DNA of 19,717 nt from Candidatus Hadarchaeales archaeon. Lineage in GTDB: Archaea > Hadarchaeota > Hadarchaeia > Hadarchaeales > WYZ-LMO6. The stretch is from contig JAWCKR010000012.1 of the NCBI GenBank assembly GCA_038851755.1, positions 21,544 through 41,260 of the forward strand, given 5' to 3'. A program made the position numbers and the translations under genes. Below the pieces are notes generated by a model. It did no database searches and was not told where the DNA came from. It saw nothing but the letters and a program-made list of their open reading frames with translations. Every line of letters starts with the position of its first letter. The first letter of the stretch is position 1. This document shows positions 11,942 through 19,717 of the stretch, piece by piece.

Positions 11942-12646
11942 ATGGTCCTGGCGGTGAAGGTCTTCGAGGTGAAGGAGAGAATGGAGCTTCCGCTCATGGC
12001 CCGCAAGCTCAGGGACTTCAAGGAGGAGGAGCCGCGCGAGAGCGGGGGTAAGAAAGTGAGCCTCAGGACCGAGATCCTGGATTTGAAGATGGAGGGTGGC
12101 GGGCTCACGGGAATCTTCAGCAAGGACTTCATCCTCAGCAGGTACTACCGCCGGGGGCTGGTGGAGGTGCCCGTCACCGAGGAGGTGCCTTTCTGGATAA
12201 GGTCCCTCAAGGGCAGGACCTTCCTCACGGTGCTGGCCCCCTCGAAGGCCAGGGGTGTGAGGAAGCTCCTGACCAACTACGTGGCAAACAAGCTGAGCGA
12301 GATCCTTTTCCTCAAAACGGGGGCCATCGTGGAAGGCAGAATCACGCACGAGACCCTGAGGGACCTCCACGAGTCCAACCCCCAGGCCACCAAGCTCATC
12401 TGGTTCGACGACATCGACATCCCCAATGTGGGCAAGGTGGCCCTGGCGGGATCGGCCCTCGCGGACAGCAGGCTTTACCGTGAATACCTGGAGCACGGGA
12501 AGATCTGGTACGCGGTGTTCGAGTTCCGCAAGTACAACATGGTGGTGGGCATCACCAGGAACTGCGTGGTGACCACCTTCAGCAGGGTGGAGCTCAAGGA
12601 CTTCTTAGATTGCGTGTTCGGGGAGGTCCTACCCCTTATCTCTTGA
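11942..12646 (+). CDS. Hypothetical protein divergent from the SMC operon
   Basis: 234-aa ORF with host-like codon usage and globular alpha/beta composition; family not recognised. Confidence 0.75.
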   Translation: MVLAVKVFEVKERMELPLMARKLRDFKEEEPRESGGKKVSLRTEILDLKMEGGGLTGIFSKDFILSRYYRRGLVEVPVTEEVPFWIRSLKGRTFLTVLAPSKARGVRKLLTNYVANKLSEILFLKTGAIVEGRITHETLRDLHESNPQATKLIWFDDIDIPNVGKVALAGSALADSRLYREYLEHGKIWYAVFEFRKYNMVVGITRNCVVTTFSRVELKDFLDCVFGEVLPLIS

Positions 12647-12836
12647 GCCCTTCTTTTTCTTGCCCAGCTCCCTGCCCAGCTCCTTGCCGGAGGCCATGAC
12701 CTCCGACTCCAGGAGGAGATCCACCATCTTTTTCTGTTTCTTCGGTATGCTCTCCCAAAGTGGTGTGGGGGGAGAGGACTTTTTTGGTTTTCGGGGAGGA
12801 AAGAAGAGAAAAGGGGAGAGGGGGTAGAATTAAGGG

Positions 12837-12909
12837 GCCCCGGTAGCTCAGCTGGTAGAGCAATCGCCTTGTAAGCGATGGGTCGTGGGTTCAAATCCCA
12901 CCCGGGGCT
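12837..12909 (+). tRNA. tRNA-Thr(TGT), no intron, CCA not encoded
   Basis: Acceptor stem GCCCCGG/CCGGGGC, D-arm GCTC..GAGC, anticodon arm ATCGC-CTTGTAA-GCGAT, T-arm GTGGG-TTCAAAT-CCCAC. Confidence 0.96.
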
Positions 12910-13174
12910 CTTAAAGGTGGTCTTCTTATTTTCGCTGAGTCAGATAGCGGTAGGAATTTTGAGGAAAATCGGGAAAGAAGGAGTCAAGAGAGTACGGAGG
13001 CTCCCTTGGAGTATGTATATAGAGGCAGGTGTTTTCCGGCCTATTAAGTTTCCAGCCAAGGCAGTATAAGCTGGCAGACCGAAATTTAGTGTCTAAGTGA
13101 TAGCACATTTGTGCAAGGTTGAGATAGGAAAACTTCCTTTTTAGGCACGGGACTCAACCGATTTTTCTGGAGGG

Positions 13175-13186
13175 GAAAGTTTTTAT
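13175..13186 (+). promoter_or_regulatory. BRE/TATA promoter of the acr operon
   Basis: GAAAG-TTTTTAT about 23 nt upstream of ATG 13209; this favours 13209 over 13185 as the start codon. Confidence 0.5.
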
Positions 13187-13208
13187 GGGAAGAGGAAAAG
13201 ACTTCCTA

Positions 13209-15035
13209 ATGTCTTCCTCGGAGAGGAAGGGGGAAAAGGCCTTCCAGGAAAGAGGACAGATAGAGGCCAGAGAGAGGGAATATGTAAGGGAACTTTACGC
13301 GGTTTCCGCGAGGTTCCTCCCGCTTGAGAAGGAAAGGGTGCTCTACGCCAGCCTTAAGGAAACCTTCGGCTCCGACCCCTTCGCCCTCCAGGACTCCCAG
13401 ATGTACAAGAGGGGGGGCTACAGGCAGTCCAGGCGCAAGCAGGAGTTCGCCAAGCTGGGGAGGCAGGTGGCCGTGGAGAGGGGTCTCCCCGCCTACAACA
13501 GGGCGGTGGGCCTGCCCATAGGCCAGAGGCAGCTGGAGCCCATCCTGATAGCCGGAACGAACATCATGGTGGAGCAGGACGACACCCACCACCTGAACAA
13601 CGTGGCCATCCAGCAGATGCTGGACGACATAAAGCGCACCGTCATCGTGAACCTGGACATCGCCCACCGCATGCTCACCGTGAGGGCGGGCAAGGAGGTC
13701 ACCCCCGAGACCATCAACCTCTACCTGGAGACCCTCCAGCACACCATGTGCGGTGGGGCCGTGGCCCAGGAGCACATGTCCGAGATCAACCCCCTCCTGG
13801 TCAAGGACGCCTACGCCAAGGTCATCACGGGCTCCGACGAGGTGAAGGACGCCCTGGACAGGCGCTTCCTCATAGACATAGACCAGCTCTTCCACCCCAC
13901 CAGGGCCGAGAAGCTCAAGGCGGCCATAGGGGAGGCCATCTGGATCGTCCTCCGCATCCCCACCCTGGCCGTCCGCATGGCGGACGGGGACGAGGCCGCC
14001 AGGTGGGCGGCTATGCAGAACACCATGGCCTTCATCGCCTCCTACGGTCTCTCGGGAGAGCACATCATCTCCGACCTGGCCTACTCCTTCAAGCACGCCA
14101 GGGTGGTCAGGATGGGCGGCAAGATGTGGTACCAGAGGATGAGGGGGACGAACGAGCCGGGGGGCTTCCCCGACGGCTACATCTGCGACTTCATGCAGGC
14201 GGAGAGGGACCTCCCCGCCCGCAGGTTCCTGGAGGTGGCCCAGGAGGACGAGGAGGAGGCCAAGAGGTACCTGAGGGTTCTGAACGAGGGAACGGGGGGA
14301 ATAGCGGCCGTGATAGACAACTCCCTCTGGCTGGGCTTCTACATGAGCGGGGGAATAGGCTTCTCCAACACCGTGGCCTCGGCCGCCTTGGCAGGCAACG
14401 TGATAGAATCCTTCTCGGATGAGCTGGTGGAGCTCATTCACAGGTACACGATGGGTGTGAGGAAGTCTCCACCCAAGTGGGATACGGTGAAGTTCATGGT
14501 GAACACCATCATCCAGTACACCATGGAGAGCTACGAGAAGTTCCCCACCCTGGCCGAGTTCCACTGGGGAGGGGCCCACAGGGTCTCCGTGATAGGCTCC
14601 ATAGCTGCCTCCACGGCTGGTATTCTCACCGGGAGCTCCACCATGGGGCTCATGGCGGCCCACTACTCTATAGCCCACGTGATGAGGGAGGGCTGGCTCA
14701 GGACGGGGTGGGCGGGACAGGAGATTCAGGACCACATAGGCCTTCCCTACCTGTGCAGCTTCAGACCTGAGGAGGGAAACCTGACGGAGCTGCGGGGGCT
14801 GAACTACCCCATGCAGTCCTACAGCGCCGCCCACGGGGCCATCAGGGCGGCGGCCGTCTACTCGGCCATGCTGGGGAGGGGAAGTGCCTGGTGTCTCAGC
14901 CCCATCGTGAAGGTGGCCTTCGCCGATCCCCACCTGGTGTTCGACTTCAAGAATCCCAGGATGTGCATCGCCAAGGCGGGGATAAGGCAGTTCATGCCGG
15001 CCGGGGAGAGGGACCCGGTGCTTCCGCCCCACTGA
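13209..15035 (+). CDS. acrA: Alkyl-coenzyme M reductase alpha subunit (divergent McrA), copy 1
   Basis: McrA motifs RGLPAYN, GQRQL, KEVTPETINLYLE, GGAVAQEHM, RWAAMQ, KHA, NEPGG, WLGFYMSGGIGF, ELRGLNYP, VAFADP, FMPAGER, with non-canonical active-site residues. Confidence 0.93.
   Translation: MSSSERKGEKAFQERGQIEAREREYVRELYAVSARFLPLEKERVLYASLKETFGSDPFALQDSQMYKRGGYRQSRRKQEFAKLGRQVAVERGLPAYNRAVGLPIGQRQLEPILIAGTNIMVEQDDTHHLNNVAIQQMLDDIKRTVIVNLDIAHRMLTVRAGKEVTPETINLYLETLQHTMCGGAVAQEHMSEINPLLVKDAYAKVITGSDEVKDALDRRFLIDIDQLFHPTRAEKLKAAIGEAIWIVLRIPTLAVRMADGDEAARWAAMQNTMAFIASYGLSGEHIISDLAYSFKHARVVRMGGKMWYQRMRGTNEPGGFPDGYICDFMQAERDLPARRFLEVAQEDEEEAKRYLRVLNEGTGGIAAVIDNSLWLGFYMSGGIGFSNTVASAALAGNVIESFSDELVELIHRYTMGVRKSPPKWDTVKFMVNTIIQYTMESYEKFPTLAEFHWGGAHRVSVIGSIAASTAGILTGSSTMGLMAAHYSIAHVMREGWLRTGWAGQEIQDHIGLPYLCSFRPEEGNLTELRGLNYPMQSYSAAHGAIRAAAVYSAMLGRGSAWCLSPIVKVAFADPHLVFDFKNPRMCIAKAGIRQFMPAGERDPVLPPH
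13362..13488 (+). repeat. 127-nt exact direct repeat, copy 1 (inside acrA1)
   Basis: Identical base for base to 19591-19717; the preceding base differs (a versus c). Confidence 0.95.
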
Positions 15036-15044
15036 GGTGAAGGC

Positions 15045-15656
15045 ATGAGGAAGATTCCGAAGTTGGAGGAGTGGTATCCTGCCTTCGCAGAGGAGTTCGA
15101 AAAGACCAAGCTTTCCACGGTGATGGAGAGGGTGACCACGGAGGAACCTCCCCTCCCCAAGGCTTCCCAGCCCCGCCCGGATGGCTGGTGGAGGGAGTAT
15201 CCGCACTCCCTCTGGATAGTGGACAGGGGAAAGGAGCCTACTGCTTACGAGCTTCTTCACGACTTCATCATAGGGAAGGCCATGACCAGCCCCCTCGCCA
15301 TTTCGATAGGGAGCACCCCGCCTTCTAGGCTCATCCTCTTCGAGGTGAAGCACCCCACCAGGGGGGTGGAGTATGCGAGGATTTTCCTGAACCCCACGGA
15401 TGTGATGGAGGGCTACGCGGAGGAGGAGCCCGATGTGGTGGTGAGGATAGGGTACTACGATTTGGTGGCCGTGCTATGCGGTGAGCTCCCTCCCTTCAAC
15501 CCACTCTACGAAGGAAGGGTGGAGATAATAGGGAATACGGTGGCAGCCATAGACCTTTTATGCGATGTGCTGGAAGCTACTAATGGCAGAGAGGCCCCCG
15601 CTGGGAGCCCGACTCCCATTCCGCGGCCGGTGATGTGGCCTCTCGGACACCCGTAG
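15045..15656 (+). CDS. Protein with a C-terminal SCP2-like lipid-binding domain
   Basis: EEPDVVVRIGYYDLVAVLCGELPPFNPLYEGRVEIIGN fits the SCP2 pattern (PDvti..s..df..l..G.l.p..a...G.l.i.G); GAGGTG RBS; sits between acrA and acrB. Confidence 0.65.
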   Translation: MRKIPKLEEWYPAFAEEFEKTKLSTVMERVTTEEPPLPKASQPRPDGWWREYPHSLWIVDRGKEPTAYELLHDFIIGKAMTSPLAISIGSTPPSRLILFEVKHPTRGVEYARIFLNPTDVMEGYAEEEPDVVVRIGYYDLVAVLCGELPPFNPLYEGRVEIIGNTVAAIDLLCDVLEATNGREAPAGSPTPIPRPVMWPLGHP

Positions 15657-15664
15657 GTGGAAGG

Positions 15665-17041
15665 ATGAAGGTCGAGACGAGGAAGGGAACGGTGGACCTG
15701 TACGACGACCTGGGCAACTGTGTGGGCAGTGAAATCCCCCTGAAGGCGCTCTCTCCCCTCTACAATCCATACATGCGGGAAGTCCTGGACCTCTTCAAGA
15801 GGCTCGCCGTCATAGACCTGGGCAAGCTGGAGAACCTGATGAAGAAGGGAATGGCGGGCTGGGAGACGGCGGTGGGACAGGACGAGAACAAGATGCCCTG
15901 GTACGGCAGGGATCTCCCCTTGGTGGATAAGGCCAAGGAGATCACGGAGAGGATAAGGGAGAAGGTGGAAAAGCACGGGGATGGAGAGCAGCTGGTGGAG
16001 GGGGCAGGAAGGTACATCATAGTGAAGGTTCCGCGCCGGATGATGGAAATCTCGGCTAGCAGGGACCCGGCCATAACCTGGACGGCGGTCGCCCTGTGTC
16101 AGGCCGTGGCTGAGACCTTCAACATGACTCCCGAGACGGACCCGGACGGGTGCAACATGCTCAAGGGGGCGGTCTTCGGAAGATACCCGCAGTCCCCCGA
16201 GTTTTCTCCTGGTGGTCCTGTATCCACCTTCCTGAAGCAGAGCAACACCGTCGATGGGCTGGGCTCAGGCTTCAAGGCCATCATGGTCAATCATCTGGTG
16301 GCTCTCTGTAACAAGAGGACCATGGACGGGGTGGCTCTGGCCACCATCTTGGAGCAGGCGGCCCAGTGGGAGATGGGGAACGCCCTGGGATGGTTTGAGA
16401 GGTACCAGCTCCTCGGTTCGGCCTACCAGGGGTTCAACGCCCACAACCTGGTGCTCGATTTGGTGAAGGAGAATAGGGAGGGGACGATAGGGGATGTGGC
16501 ATACAGCGTGGTGCGCAGGGCGCTGGAGGATGGTGTGATCAAGGTGAAGAGAACCCTCCCCTCCGGCTACAAAGTCTACTCCACGAGTGACTACTCCCTA
16601 TGGAACGCTTACACCTGTGCGGCCGTGCTCGCCGCCGTCATCGTGAACGTGGGGGCCAGCAGGGCGGCCCAGAGCGTTTCCACCGTGGTGGGGTATTTCG
16701 GTGACCTCCTCCTGATGGAGACAGGGGGCCTCCCCGATCCCGACGCGGGGAGGGTGGAGGGGACGGGACAGGGCTTTGCCTTCTACACCCACTCCATCTA
16801 TGGAGGTGCGGGTCCGGGGGCCTACACCCTCGATCACGTGATCCCAAGGCACGGTTCGGGTTTCGTGGGTCCGTGCATCGTGGCCGGCATGTGTTTGGAC
16901 TCTGGCACCCAGCTCTTCTCCCCCGAGATGACCTCGGCCAGCTACTTCAAGATAAGGGAGAAGCTGCCCCTCCTCCATGACCCCCTCAGGAAGGTGGCGG
17001 AGGCGGCGGAGAGGATAAAGCCGGAGGTGGGGAGGGAGTAA
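15665..17041 (+). CDS. acrB: Alkyl-coenzyme M reductase beta subunit
   Basis: VDLYDD.G, LSPLYNP, GAVFGRYPQ, GLGSGFKAIMVNH, EQAAQWEMGNA.G.FER..LLG.AYQG.NA, FYTHSIYGGAGPG; GGTGGA RBS before ATG 15665. Confidence 0.95.
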   Translation: MKVETRKGTVDLYDDLGNCVGSEIPLKALSPLYNPYMREVLDLFKRLAVIDLGKLENLMKKGMAGWETAVGQDENKMPWYGRDLPLVDKAKEITERIREKVEKHGDGEQLVEGAGRYIIVKVPRRMMEISASRDPAITWTAVALCQAVAETFNMTPETDPDGCNMLKGAVFGRYPQSPEFSPGGPVSTFLKQSNTVDGLGSGFKAIMVNHLVALCNKRTMDGVALATILEQAAQWEMGNALGWFERYQLLGSAYQGFNAHNLVLDLVKENREGTIGDVAYSVVRRALEDGVIKVKRTLPSGYKVYSTSDYSLWNAYTCAAVLAAVIVNVGASRAAQSVSTVVGYFGDLLLMETGGLPDPDAGRVEGTGQGFAFYTHSIYGGAGPGAYTLDHVIPRHGSGFVGPCIVAGMCLDSGTQLFSPEMTSASYFKIREKLPLLHDPLRKVAEAAERIKPEVGRE

Positions 17042-17042
17042 G

Positions 17043-17834
17043 ATGGCGGCGGGCAAGGTGAAGTACGAGCCGCAGATTTACCCTGGAAAGGATGAGACGT
17101 CGGAGAGGAGACGGAAGCTCTGGGACAAGAAGAGGAAGCTGGCGAAGTACCGTGAGATCTCCGACGATGATATCACCCGCCTGCTGGGGCACAGGGCGGT
17201 AGGGGCCCTCTATCCCAGCGTGCACCCGCCTCTGGAGGAACTCATCGAGCCCTACGACCCCATCAAGAACATCGTGGTCCCCACTCCCGGGGCCAGAGCC
17301 GGGGACAGGATAAGGTTCGTGCAGTTCGCGGACAGCTTCTGGCATCCACCCATCGCACCCTACGGCAGGCTGAGGCTCTACTTCAACAGGCTGAGGGGGA
17401 TAGACGTGGTGGCCTACAGCGGGAGGTGCATCCTGGAGATGAGGGAGAGGGACCTGGAGGCGGCGATGAAGATGCTGCTGGAGACAGAAATCTTCAACCC
17501 CGCCAGGACGGCCCTGAAGGGTATAACCATCCACGGTCACTCCCTGAGGCTGGACGAGGACGGGCTGATGTTCGACGCCAGGAGGAGGTACATCTTGGAC
17601 AAGTCAAGCGGGGAGGTGGTGTACATCAAGGACCAGATGGGGAGGGTGCTGGACAACCCAGTGCCTGTGGGCAGACCCCTCTCCGAGGAGGAGTGCAGGA
17701 AGCTGGACCTGGCCTATACCTGGGACACTCATCCCTTCAAATCGAGGACTGAGGTTTTGGAGATTATCTCCAGGGCAGCCAAGCTGAGGGTATTGGCGGG
17801 TTTCAATCCAGAACTCCTGACGGAAGAAATGTGA
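17043..17834 (+). CDS. acrG: Alkyl-coenzyme M reductase gamma subunit
   Basis: YEPQIYPG, LLGHR...YPSVHPPLEE, GARAGDRIRFVQFADS, SGR..LE.RERDLE, HGHSLRLDEDGLMFD. Confidence 0.95.
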   Translation: MAAGKVKYEPQIYPGKDETSERRRKLWDKKRKLAKYREISDDDITRLLGHRAVGALYPSVHPPLEELIEPYDPIKNIVVPTPGARAGDRIRFVQFADSFWHPPIAPYGRLRLYFNRLRGIDVVAYSGRCILEMRERDLEAAMKMLLETEIFNPARTALKGITIHGHSLRLDEDGLMFDARRRYILDKSSGEVVYIKDQMGRVLDNPVPVGRPLSEEECRKLDLAYTWDTHPFKSRTEVLEIISRAAKLRVLAGFNPELLTEEM

Positions 17835-17843
17835 GGTGGGTTT

Positions 17844-19415
17844 TTGAGCAAGCATCTAGAGGGGGTCAGCAAGGTTCTGAGCCCGGAGGCTTTTGAGGAT
17901 TTCAAGAAGAGAGTCACAGGCACGGTTTTGGAGATAAGGGAAAAACAAGCTGAGTACTACCGGGACACCTATCCTCCCGGTTACGAACACATAGCCCCCG
18001 ATGGCATGGCCACCGAGCCTTGGATCCTGAACTGGGTGAGGGAGCGTGGTGGAATAACCATGGAGGAGTACGACAAGCTGATTTACGAGGAATTTGTGGA
18101 ATGGGCTTACCGCGTTATCCATGCCATAGGGGTTTGCAAGCGTGCGGTGGCGGAGAAGCCCCCGGTTTCGGAACTCATCAAGGCCAAGTGGCTGTGCCAC
18201 CTCAGCCATCCCCCCGCTTATATGGTGAGACCAGATCTTGGTTTCTCTACCACCCAGATGCTCTATGGTAAGTACGCAACCACCATGTGGTGCCATGTGG
18301 ACTGGTGGAGGGGAGAGTTCGTTTGGTTCCAAGGATATCACAACGAGGATGGAGTGCCGGTCCAGCACTGGATCATAGGCATGACCAGGGAAATCGTGCA
18401 GCACTTCGACGAGGAGGACAGGCAGAAGCTCCTCACGCCCAGCGACTTCATGGCGGTTCCTCCCGATGTCACGATGCCCCTCGACCGCAGGCACCTGCGC
18501 ACAGGTATAAAGCTCAGGGAGATCCCCAAGAAGTCCCCCTACGATCTGGTGGAGTGGCTCAGGATGGCCAGGGACATCATCAAGGACCTGAGGGAAGAAA
18601 TTTTCCCCAAGTGGGCTCATGCCACTCTCTATATCTCCACTTCACCAGGCAACATGGGAATAGGTTCCCAGCACACTTTCTGGACCTCGCATTTCTGGGC
18701 GCTGGTCTGGATGGCCATGAACGCCACCAGGCTGATCGGCATACCCATCATGTTCTACACCTACGAACCCCTCCCCCCCATCCTCAACACCCTCCTGGCC
18801 CTTCCCGCCGAACTCTGGGTGAGGAGGTTGGAGGAACTCTTCACCACGGGGCCGAAGGGTCTGGTTTGCGATGCCGTCAACAAGGTCATCACTCCTGAGA
18901 AGAAGACCCCCATGCTCCACCAGATGAGAGAGCTCTACCTCAAAGGGAAGGCGTTCAAGGGGATGGCTCTCCCCTACGATGAGGGCATACCTCCGCCCAA
19001 GGCCTTCTTCACCGCCCTTCCCGCGCCCGTTTACAGGGAGGTGAACATAAGGGATGTGTTCGCCAACCCAGACAAGCTACCCAAGGAGTACTGGGAGCTG
19101 CTGGAGTCCGAAGGAGGAGTGGACAGGAAGACGGGTAGGATTCCACCCTACAACGAAGTTCCCAGGCTGAAGTACCTCTTCGACCCCACCATAGAGTGGC
19201 TGAAGCCCAGCGACTTTCCCCCCATAGACTGGAAGGAAGGTCAGGTCTGGCCAGTGGACATGACGAGGGAAAAGATGCAGATAATGGTGGAGGAGGGCTA
19301 CGACGGCTCGGGGGAGAATCTCCTGCACTACAGTTGTCTAGCAGACAAGAAGATGGGCCAAGAGGGGAAGCTGGTTCTTCTGGGCACCACACCCTACAAG
19401 CTGCCCGTAGAGTAA
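17844..19415 (+). CDS. Uncharacterised 523-aa Trp/Pro/Met-rich protein in the acr operon
   Basis: TTG start 9 nt after the acrG stop with a GAGGTG RBS; long clean ORF; family not recognised. Confidence 0.8.
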   Translation: MSKHLEGVSKVLSPEAFEDFKKRVTGTVLEIREKQAEYYRDTYPPGYEHIAPDGMATEPWILNWVRERGGITMEEYDKLIYEEFVEWAYRVIHAIGVCKRAVAEKPPVSELIKAKWLCHLSHPPAYMVRPDLGFSTTQMLYGKYATTMWCHVDWWRGEFVWFQGYHNEDGVPVQHWIIGMTREIVQHFDEEDRQKLLTPSDFMAVPPDVTMPLDRRHLRTGIKLREIPKKSPYDLVEWLRMARDIIKDLREEIFPKWAHATLYISTSPGNMGIGSQHTFWTSHFWALVWMAMNATRLIGIPIMFYTYEPLPPILNTLLALPAELWVRRLEELFTTGPKGLVCDAVNKVITPEKKTPMLHQMRELYLKGKAFKGMALPYDEGIPPPKAFFTALPAPVYREVNIRDVFANPDKLPKEYWELLESEGGVDRKTGRIPPYNEVPRLKYLFDPTIEWLKPSDFPPIDWKEGQVWPVDMTREKMQIMVEEGYDGSGENLLHYSCLADKKMGQEGKLVLLGTTPYKLPVE

Positions 19416-19445
19416 CCTTTTTATTTACTTCTTTCCCATTCTCCT
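19416..19445 (+). promoter_or_regulatory. Pyrimidine/T-rich tract: possible terminator and/or TATA box for acrA2
   Basis: CCTTTTTATTTACTTCTTTCCC follows the stop; TTTTTAT lies about 26 nt upstream of GTG 19450, similar to the acrA1 promoter. Confidence 0.4.
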
Positions 19446-19449
19446 AAAC

Positions 19450-19717
19450 GTGGAGAGAAAGAGAGGGCTGGACGAAAGGGCAGGCCAGCTCGAAGCTAGG
19501 GAGAGGGAATATATCCGAGAATTGTACGCTCTTTCCAAGAAGTACCTCGAGGTGGAGAAGGAGAGACCTCTGTACTCGATTATGCAGCGCACCTTCGGCT
19601 CCGACCCCTTCGCCCTCCAGGACTCCCAGATGTACAAGAGGGGGGGCTACAGGCAGTCCAGGCGCAAGCAGGAGTTCGCCAAGCTGGGGAGGCAGGTGGC
19701 CGTGGAGAGGGGTCTCC
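19450..19717 (+). CDS. acrA: Second ACR alpha subunit, 5' part (runs off the window)
   Basis: Not in the ORF track. Hand translation MERKRGLDERAGQLEAREREYIRELYALSKKYLEVEKERPLYSIMQRTFGSDPFALQDSQMYKRGGYRQSRRKQEFAKLGRQVAVERGL is paralogous to the acrA1 N-terminus. Confidence 0.9.
   Translation, partial: MERKRGLDERAGQLEAREREYIRELYALSKKYLEVEKERPLYSIMQRTFGSDPFALQDSQMYKRGGYRQSRRKQEFAKLGRQVAVERGL
19591..19717 (+). repeat. 127-nt exact direct repeat, copy 2 (inside acrA2, at the window end)
   Basis: Identical to 13362-13488. Confidence 0.95.

Follow-up and report, generated by a model that had tools for sequence, protein, structure and literature searches.

A probable second alpha subunit gene of alkyl-coenzyme M reductase, cut by assembly at a conversion-maintained repeat, in a Hadarchaeota genome

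In a Hadarchaeota genome that most likely belongs to the genus Candidatus (Ca.) Melinoarchaeum, the locus for alkyl-coenzyme M reductase (Acr) breaks off within a second gene for the alpha subunit, acrA2. The stretch of DNA analysed here, hereafter the window, comprises 19,717 nucleotides (nt) of contig JAWCKR010000012.1 in assembly GCA_038851755.1 (contig C12 of genome G000, positions 21544–41260), and its final base is also the contig's final base. We propose, with a probability of about 0.85, that acrA2 is a complete and functional gene, which the assembly has cut at a 900-nt repeat shared with the upstream copy acrA1 and maintained by gene conversion. The locus would then read acrA1-orf203-acrB-acrG-orf523-acrA2-orf203′, with acrA plus orf203 as the unit of duplication.

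Results

Identity with acrA1 at the end of the window

The original prediction, made from the letters of the window, described 47 diverged acrA2 codons that give way abruptly to a stretch identical to acrA1 even at synonymous sites, and this description is confirmed. Positions 19591–19717 match 13362–13488 at 127 of 127 bases, with the identity ending sharply at its left edge, while the 47 codons before it (19450–19590) agree with acrA1 at 80 of 141 bases in an ungapped comparison and at 27 of 45 residues. At that flank identity, 127 consecutive matches would be expected by chance with a probability of about 5e-32. The abruptness of the switch is real, but its apparent extent is set by the contig end, and the true block is 900 nt long.

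Because the window ends where the contig ends, it is the assembly, not a stop codon, that truncates acrA2, and the length of 127 nt is a product of assembly rather than of biology. The largest k-mer used by SPAdes is 127, and a contig end at 127 nt is what a de Bruijn assembler leaves on meeting a repeat. The visible open reading frame (ORF; 19450–19716) matches the Pfam family MCR_alpha_N (PF02745) at profile positions 8–51 only (E 1.1e-4), and its 22 bits lie below the 27-bit cut-off because only about 45 residues of the domain are present in the window. The GTG start of acrA2 is kept in 4/4 aligned genomes, as is an A/T-rich element at a similar distance upstream. In the window this T-rich element lies about 27 nt before the GTG, a spacing that, by what is generally known of archaeal promoters, fits a leaderless transcript and makes the element a candidate promoter. 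A scan of 12600–19717 for sigma-70 promoters and terminators gave nothing above shuffled expectation, the sigma-70 model not being applicable to archaea.

The shared core and the continuation of acrA2

Logan contigs (k = 31) from four public sequencing runs were compared with window positions 13000–19717: X1, which is possibly the source sample, X2 and X3 from the same study, and X4. Depths of such contigs are not copy numbers, and the contigs can hide rare or popped variants. In X1 and X2, a single contig of exactly 900 nt corresponds to 13362–14261 with 0 differing letters; in X3 the core contig begins at 13362 and extends to 14605. The contig holding the upstream flank of acrA1 stops at 13391, and in X1, X2 and X3 the contig holding acrB, acrG, orf523 and the acrA2 start stops at 19620. 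Both flanks thus extend 30 nt into the core and run into the same graph node. Core depths of 15.9, 13 and 11.7 in X1, X2 and X3 are about 1.5–2 times those of the two flanks (about 10.5 and 10.0 in X1, 7.3–9.8 and 5.9–7.5 in X2, 6.3 and 4.5–5.9 in X3). These contig data are consistent with two copies of the 900-nt block, exact or nearly so, without amounting to proof.

An apparent joint in X1 from 15039 to 18399 was disregarded, as it has only 21 nt on one side. The run X4, labelled metatranscriptomic and rated as probably DNA, holds a related strain over 13224–16583 and 19272–19717 at depths of hundreds to thousands. These stretches take in acrA, orf203, the 5′ part of acrB and the acrA2 start, and nothing was found over 16584–19047, which holds acrG and orf523. 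The run type is uncertain and contigs may have been filtered out, and no conclusion on expression was drawn.

A tblastn search of the source genome returns only three alpha pieces, namely acrA1, the 89-codon start at the end of C12 and a fragment that opens another contig, C20. This fragment (C20:1–879, locus L001) covers residues 323–616 at 83.7% identity, and it matches the C-terminal helical alpha domain PF02249 (E 4.9e-23, 82.5 bits). It is followed by orf203′ (G000:C20:892–1479), which encodes 195 amino acids (aa) and is 55% identical to orf203. The first 111 nt of C20 equal window 14151–14261, the end of the core. Beyond the core, blocks in which acrA1 and C20 are identical alternate with patches of strong divergence, and X3 contigs that share blocks with acrA1 continue into C20-type sequence at 14847 and 15039. 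Over residues 360–500, the fragment agrees with acrA2 of the Hadesarchaea genome WYZ-LMO6 at 133/140 positions, compared with 104/140 for acrA1, and is thus an acrA2 orthologue. We infer from these comparisons that the fragment belongs to the same gene as the acrA2 start, the remainder of acrA2 being the shared core plus G000:C20:1–882. Since short-read assemblers are unable to bridge the repeat, C12 stops 127 nt into its second copy and the 3′ part of acrA2 opens C20.

Gene counts and gene order in relatives

The source genome is 93% complete with 0.04% contamination, and a profile search finds in it one MCR_beta, one MCR_gamma and two MCR_alpha_N matches. A scan of species-representative genomes gave 11 loci, to which a family search and contigs of further relatives were added. 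An acrA2-type start follows orf523 in 6/6 genomes available for the family, which span two genera, with one MCR_beta match in each. The prediction that two alpha genes flank one beta/gamma pair is upheld by this recurrent order, and the copy count that it proposed as a check returns one acrB and one acrG, so that acrA2 has no beta and gamma genes of its own. The six acrA2 starts, together with a single acrB in each genome, argue against acrA2 being a pseudogene, a strain artefact or part of a second operon.

The most complete view of acrA2 comes from WYZ-LMO6, whose contig L002 begins with the 3′ part of acrA1 and continues through orf203, acrB, acrG, orf523, acrA2 and orf203′. Its acrA2 (L002:5288–7096) is full length, with 603 aa and both Pfam domains (PF02745 at 326.6 bits), and the acrA2 start in the window is 90% identical to the start of this gene. 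A separate contig of WYZ-LMO6, L012, ends with the acrA1 start. Each N-terminus type is 80–98% conserved across genomes. In S4B3_HD70 (L007), S1_Bin_384 (L011), G003 (L013, 5574 nt) and G005 (L016, 4640 nt), the cassette lies on a contig whose two ends each fall in an alpha gene or beside one.

The four-contig genome G003, of the same genus, was assembled differently. Its 460-kb contig holds the C12-type upstream gene, one alpha gene, orf203′ and C20-type genes. By joining C12-type upstream to C20-type downstream genes, this contig identifies C12 and C20 as neighbours. The alpha gene on it (L014 = G003:C1, 5059–6903) is a hybrid of an acrA1 N-terminus, the core and an acrA2 C-terminal part, and acrB and acrG lie on the separate 5.6-kb cassette contig (G003:C4), the first 127 nt of which equal the chromosomal alpha gene. 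This layout shows assemblers choosing different paths through the same graph. A single linear path, upstream-core-cassette-core-downstream, uses every edge once and yields two full alpha genes; a deleted form together with a circle would yield the same graph, and is the minor rival.

In the outgroup loci L003, L004, L005 and L008 the order is acrB-acrG-acrA, with an orf203 homologue next in L003 and L004. This order places acrA2-orf203′ in the ancestral position and marks acrA1-orf203 as a duplicated module placed upstream.

A further occurrence concerns a metagenome-assembled genome (MAG) labelled Bathyarchaeia. Its contig L009 (JAWAPV010000028.1) begins over positions 1–564 with a Hadarchaeota acrA2 5′ end that is 99.6% identical to the window, runs 458 nt into the core at 99.3% identity and then passes into unrelated DNA that has no match in the source genome. 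It is probably a chimeric contig, and it could cause misattribution of Acr to that Bathyarchaeia MAG.

Gene conversion between acrA1 and acrA2

Both alpha copies of the source genome were compared with both copies of WYZ-LMO6, with site types taken from 861 C-terminal columns. These comprise 53 orthology-type sites, 32 concerted-type sites, at which copies agree within genomes and differ between them, and 2 cross-type sites. The types are segregated along the gene into 15 runs, a pattern reached by 0 of 100000 shuffles. Orthology-type sites cluster at 13221–13360 (33–38 sites) and 14262–14681 (53 sites), and concerted-type sites at 13370–13487, 14201–14222 and 14693–15029.

Substitution rates follow the same partition. 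Between the source genome and WYZ-LMO6, the core has accumulated 46 synonymous and 13 non-synonymous changes in 300 codons (synonymous divergence, dS, 0.27; non-synonymous divergence, dN, 0.019), whereas within the source genome dS is 0 and the copies are identical wherever both are visible. At the 3′ end, dS is 0.139 within the source genome and 0.045 within WYZ-LMO6, against 0.42–0.49 between the genomes. Both genomes have their switch points at 13362 and about 14261. On this evidence, the pattern appears to be one of region-limited gene conversion, with a bounded tract and sharp mosaic boundaries. The original prediction that the direct repeats recombine is accordingly supported in the form of gene conversion, by the segregated sites and the dS of 0.27 versus 0, but not in the form of excision or amplification of the 6.2-kb cassette.

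The intervening regions behave differently. In the mid region, acrA2 orthologues differ by dN 0.025 and dS 0.351, compared with dN 0.209 between paralogues, and the regions escaping conversion appear to be under purifying selection in each lineage. Fixed paralogue-specific residues across the compared genomes number 5 in the N-terminal part and 18 in the C-terminal part, 16 of the latter lying within residues 394–433 (numbered from the Met at 13209).

Position of the paralogue-specific regions

The differences between the paralogues were placed relative to the active-site loop by sequence position only. Relative to solved McrA chains, the two alphas are extended at the N-terminus by about 48 residues, and this extension makes up most of the diverged N-terminus. 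The McrA active-site loop, GGVGFTQY in the solved chain, has an aligned counterpart that is identical in both copies, and the 394–433 patch begins a few residues beyond this counterpart. A one-residue deletion in the loop equivalent to McrA 239–246 sits in the shared core. According to an AlphaFold-based model in a 2022 review, this deletion opens a cleft for long alkanes (PMC9118554). As this proposed long-chain entrance loop lies in the shared core, it is identical in both alphas and is not what distinguishes them. The same review calls substrate recognition by long-chain Acr an open riddle (PMC9118554).

Features of the locus

The coordinates of the locus are collected in Table 1. The alpha subunit encoded here appears to be of the Acr, alkane-activating, type, as it falls outside the McrA equivalog and groups by sequence with the alphas of cultured long-chain alkane oxidisers. 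Its score against the McrA equivalog TIGR03256 is 514.6 bits, below the canonical-McrA cut-off of 767.75. AcrA1 is 62–64% identical to alphas of the Ca. Methanoliparia type and 76% identical to that of Bathyarchaeota BA2, and AcrA is 88–95% identical in the closest named relatives, which are Hadesarchaea MAGs. With matches ranked rather than placed on a tree, the best relatives of acrA1 are the loci of Hadesarchaea, Bathyarchaeota BA2 and Ca. Methanoliparum/Methanolliviera. Hexadecyl-coenzyme M has been found in related cultures (PMC11297162; PMC10811742), and the available text of these two papers assigns it to neither alpha.

The start of acrA1 is probably the ATG at 13209 rather than position 13185; in G003 a stop codon separates these two sites, and the sequences of relatives agree only from the second Met. 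Upstream of acrA1, a 234-aa ORF (11942–12646) occupies the same place in G003, where it is 89.7% identical, and the sole lead to its identity is a weak match to MtrA that falls under the cut-off (E 0.07, 13.2 bits).

Table 1. Features of the Acr locus, in window coordinates.
Feature	Position	Strand	Support
acrA1, alkyl-coenzyme M reductase alpha subunit	13185..15035	+	Pfam MCR_alpha_N E 1.8e-96, MCR_alpha E 3.7e-22
Repeat copy 1, the 900-nt core; acrA1 codons 60–359, most of the N-terminal domain	13362..14261	+	
orf203, predicted 203-aa SCP2-fold protein after acrA1	15045..15656	+	
acrB, sole beta subunit gene in the genome	15635..17041	+	Pfam MCR_beta E 2.8e-96, MCR_beta_N E 3.6e-29
acrG, sole gamma subunit gene in the genome	17043..17834	+	Pfam MCR_gamma E 5.9e-91
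orf523, conserved 523-aa ORF without a family, between acrG and acrA2	17844..19415	+	
TATA-like T-rich element TTTTTATTTA in the 34-nt spacer 5′ of acrA2; putative internal promoter	19418..19427	+	Sequence reading
acrA2, first 89 codons; open frame running off the contig end	19450..19717 (ORF 19450–19716)	+	
Visible portion of repeat copy 2 (initial 127 nt of the core), 6229 nt 3′ of copy 1	19591..19717	+	

The neighbouring genes orf203 and orf523

Sequence profiles give little indication of the nature of orf203, which scores below the cut-off against the Pfam family SCP2 (PF02036; E 0.11, 13.3 bits, cut-off 21.3) and has only 9 homologues at E <= 1e-5. A comparison of protein-language features reaches a score of 0.94, with SCP2 clusters among the matches. 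The AlphaFold model of the protein (pLDDT, the predicted local distance difference test, 76.3) has 40 Foldseek matches in the PDB at E <= 0.001, headed by SCP2 proteins (E 2.4e-7, TMt 0.6–0.7). Almost all of the listed fold matches are SCP2, UbiJ-SCP2 or alkylsulfatase SCP2-like domains (TMt 0.55–0.71), and one of them was solved with a C16 fatty acid bound. The model thus predicts an SCP2 lipid-carrier fold for residues of about 65–180. The N-terminal part of the family is also conserved, with invariant RP.GWW, EEEPD and GHP motifs, and the family adjoins acr genes in loci of Hadarchaeota, Bathyarchaeota BA1/BA2 and Ca. Methanolliviera.

The 2022 review names "hydrocarbon-carrier proteins" as one possible route for the delivery of long alkanes to Acr (PMC9118554). 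With its predicted fold, orf203, like orf203′, is a candidate carrier of hydrocarbons or of alkyl-coenzyme M. We found no paper linking SCP2 or sterol carrier proteins to alkyl-coenzyme M reductase. A predicted complex of AcrA1 (7-row alignment) and the orf203 product (11-row alignment) scored 0.01 against a mark of 0.32, which speaks neither for nor against binding.

For orf523, neither Pfam, NCBIfam nor the protein-language atlas gave a lead, although 36 homologues are known, and its confident model (pLDDT 93.8; predicted template modelling score, pTM, 0.92) has no PDB fold match at E <= 0.001. Paralogues lie on contigs C25, C16, C14, C20 and C5 of the source genome, making about six family genes in 1.25 Mb. 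One member of the family belongs to the acr operon itself, and in Bathyarchaeota BA2 (L006) another adjoins acrA. The orf523 product could serve steps that follow alkyl-coenzyme M formation. This family also breaks contigs: C14:1–186 is 100% identical to the internal stretch C14:3227–3412, and the 3′ end of C16 falls inside an orf523 paralogue whose last 59 codons seemingly open C14. These observations suggest that the orf523 family too has gene conversion or exact repeats.

Discussion

Alternative explanations

The terminal 127 nt could in principle be a pure assembly artefact, a k-mer overlap or chimeric end, with no second gene sharing acrA1 sequence. The exact length of the identity, its position at the contig end and the overlap of exactly 127 nt that likewise opens the G003 cassette contig are what such an origin would produce. 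However, independent k = 31 contigs from three runs connect the flank specific to acrA2 with one and the same 900-nt core, WYZ-LMO6 contains a contiguous full-length acrA2 with the same switch point, and L009, from another assembly, passes from the acrA2 N-terminus far into the core, all of which leaves an artefact very improbable. The same low credence applies to the view that partial duplication left acrA2 behind as a truncated remnant or pseudogene, a possibility that the original prediction had itself raised. Only 89 codons are visible in the window and their Pfam score is under the cut-off, but the truncation coincides with the contig end, and the WYZ-LMO6 orthologue retains its full length of 603 aa and both domains. 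Strong purifying selection in the paralogue-specific regions (dN 0.025 versus dS 0.351) and conservation of the GTG start and spacer element also speak against decay. Slighter still is the chance that a co-assembled strain, or some other organism, contributed the second N-terminus; the original prediction had foreseen the case of a co-assembled strain. The genome is indeed metagenome-assembled, and L009 shows that such a fragment can be mis-joined to foreign DNA. Yet in 6/6 family genomes, which belong to two genera and stem from different assemblies, the acrA2 start is contiguous with orf523, acrG and acrB. The two N-termini agree at only 60% of residues, a divergence far greater than that between strains, and contamination is 0.04%.

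The strongest of these alternatives, though still improbable, is that the repeats recombine, so that a deleted form (acrA1 N-terminus, core, acrA2 C-terminal part) with an excised or amplified 6.2-kb cassette exists in the population or is the true genome. An exact direct repeat of 900 nt is a good substrate for homologous recombination, and the G003 assembly presents exactly the deleted form on its 460-kb contig beside the separate 5574-nt cassette contig. The de Bruijn graph is, however, the same for both structures, and the G003 layout may therefore be merely the path chosen by the assembler. No circle-specific joint is possible either, as the joint of a circle reads like that of a tandem form. 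Cassette depth close to flank depth in X1–X3 argues against amplification, within the limits of contig depth, and loss of the sole acrB and acrG would abolish alkane activation.

Several observations also weigh against an intact acrA2 that continues on C20 behind a conversion-maintained repeat. No single read or contig of the source genome spans acrA2, and the C12–C20 join is drawn from graph topology and relatives. The middle 662 nt of the core are assembled just once per genome, and identity of the core in both copies rests on the Logan contigs and on depths that are not copy numbers. The overlap of C20 with the core is 111 nt, not 127. The copies in genome S1 are near-identical after 13362 but differ in a 10-nt patch at 13521–13580, so that core identity is not absolute everywhere. 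The G003 layout is equally compatible with a deletion or circle form.

Comparison with known systems

Two alpha subunits in one organism are familiar from methanogens. The methyl-coenzyme M reductase isoenzymes I and II (mcr/mrt) of Methanobacteriales and Methanococcales reportedly comprise two alphas, each with its own beta and gamma genes in separate operons, whereas the two alphas described here share a single beta/gamma pair. Several whole, deeply diverged acrABG sets occur in Ca. Syntrophoarchaeum and Ca. Alkanophaga and have been discussed as a basis of substrate range; the present locus instead combines two alphas that have an identical core with one beta/gamma pair.

A closer evolutionary parallel is provided by mtrA-1/mtrA-2 in the mtr operon of Methanococcales and Methanomicrobiales, in which two paralogues of one subunit stand in an operon and one domain is homogenised by long-lasting gene conversion while the other part stays distinct (PMC4632066). 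The mtr enzyme, like Acr a multi-subunit C1/coenzyme M enzyme, is a methyltransferase whose distinct part arose by domain fusion (PMC4632066), in contrast to a reductase in which an N-terminal extension and internal patches are distinct around an exact 900-nt block.

The closest layout is that of the hot-spring Hadarchaeota Ca. Melinoarchaeum, for which both MAGs are described with three acrA copies, of which two form one uninterrupted operon together with acrB and acrG while the third stands outside it (PMC11297162, Nat Commun 2024). Here too, acrB and acrG share an operon with two acrA genes, but the third piece, on C20, represents the 3′ portion of the second of these, which the repeat has separated from the remainder. 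This suggests that the published third acrA of Ca. Melinoarchaeum may be a 3′ fragment of the same kind. The text available from that study contains no mention of an identical core, of gene conversion or of an SCP2-fold neighbour (PMC11297162), all three of which are described here. For Ca. Cerberiarchaeum, "a single complete Acr operon" has been described (PMC10811742), and the cassette contig of S4B3_HD70, which we take to come from this organism or one close to it, is bounded on either side by an alpha fragment. We found no statement of concerted evolution for acrA in the literature. The two-alpha layout is thus already in print, and the locus is a new example of a known evolutionary pattern, domain-limited gene conversion.

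A possible role for two alpha subunits

After duplication of the acrA-orf203 unit, recurrent gene conversion would keep the 900-nt repeat identical, and the 3′ end of the gene in part, within tract boundaries that are conserved across species. The N-terminal 47–59 residues and the patch after the active-site loop would escape conversion and remain paralogue-specific. Conversion, or selection on its products, may homogenise the parts that face the shared partners and the cofactor F430, leaving peripheral parts free to specialise. Both alphas would assemble with the single AcrB and AcrG. Transcription of acrA2 may start from its own promoter and give a leaderless or short-leader mRNA, and each alpha may be paired with its own SCP2-fold partner.

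The functional consequence that we suggest is tentative and more doubtful than not. One beta/gamma pair could serve two Acr forms, or a mixed alpha1-alpha2 enzyme, with a conversion-kept core of 300 residues, about 23 or more selected residues and, for each alpha, its own gene for an SCP2-fold hydrocarbon carrier; the combination of variant and carrier would set which alkanes or alkyl-coenzyme M species are handled. If this is true, the alpha variant and its SCP2-fold carrier would constitute the delivery route that the 2022 review raises as a possibility (PMC9118554).

Implications for Acr biology

These results bear on how acr loci are counted and compared. In short-read MAGs, the same locus appears as "three copies", as "a single operon", as the chimeric acrA1-acrA2 hybrid of G003 or as the foreign-DNA fusion of L009. 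Gene conversion gives parts of acrA different histories, which whole-gene trees mix. When taken from short-read MAGs, both acrA copy numbers and acrA trees for this clade are untrustworthy.

Two alphas on one beta/gamma pair, with defined paralogue-specific residues, provide a concrete target for proteomics or cryo-EM (electron cryo-microscopy) on substrate recognition, and the hydrocarbon carrier that has been proposed has a testable candidate in the SCP2-fold gene behind each acrA. The part worth following is the possibility that this family of Hadarchaeota may employ alpha isoenzymes or a mixed-alpha Acr, each alpha with its own SCP2-fold carrier.

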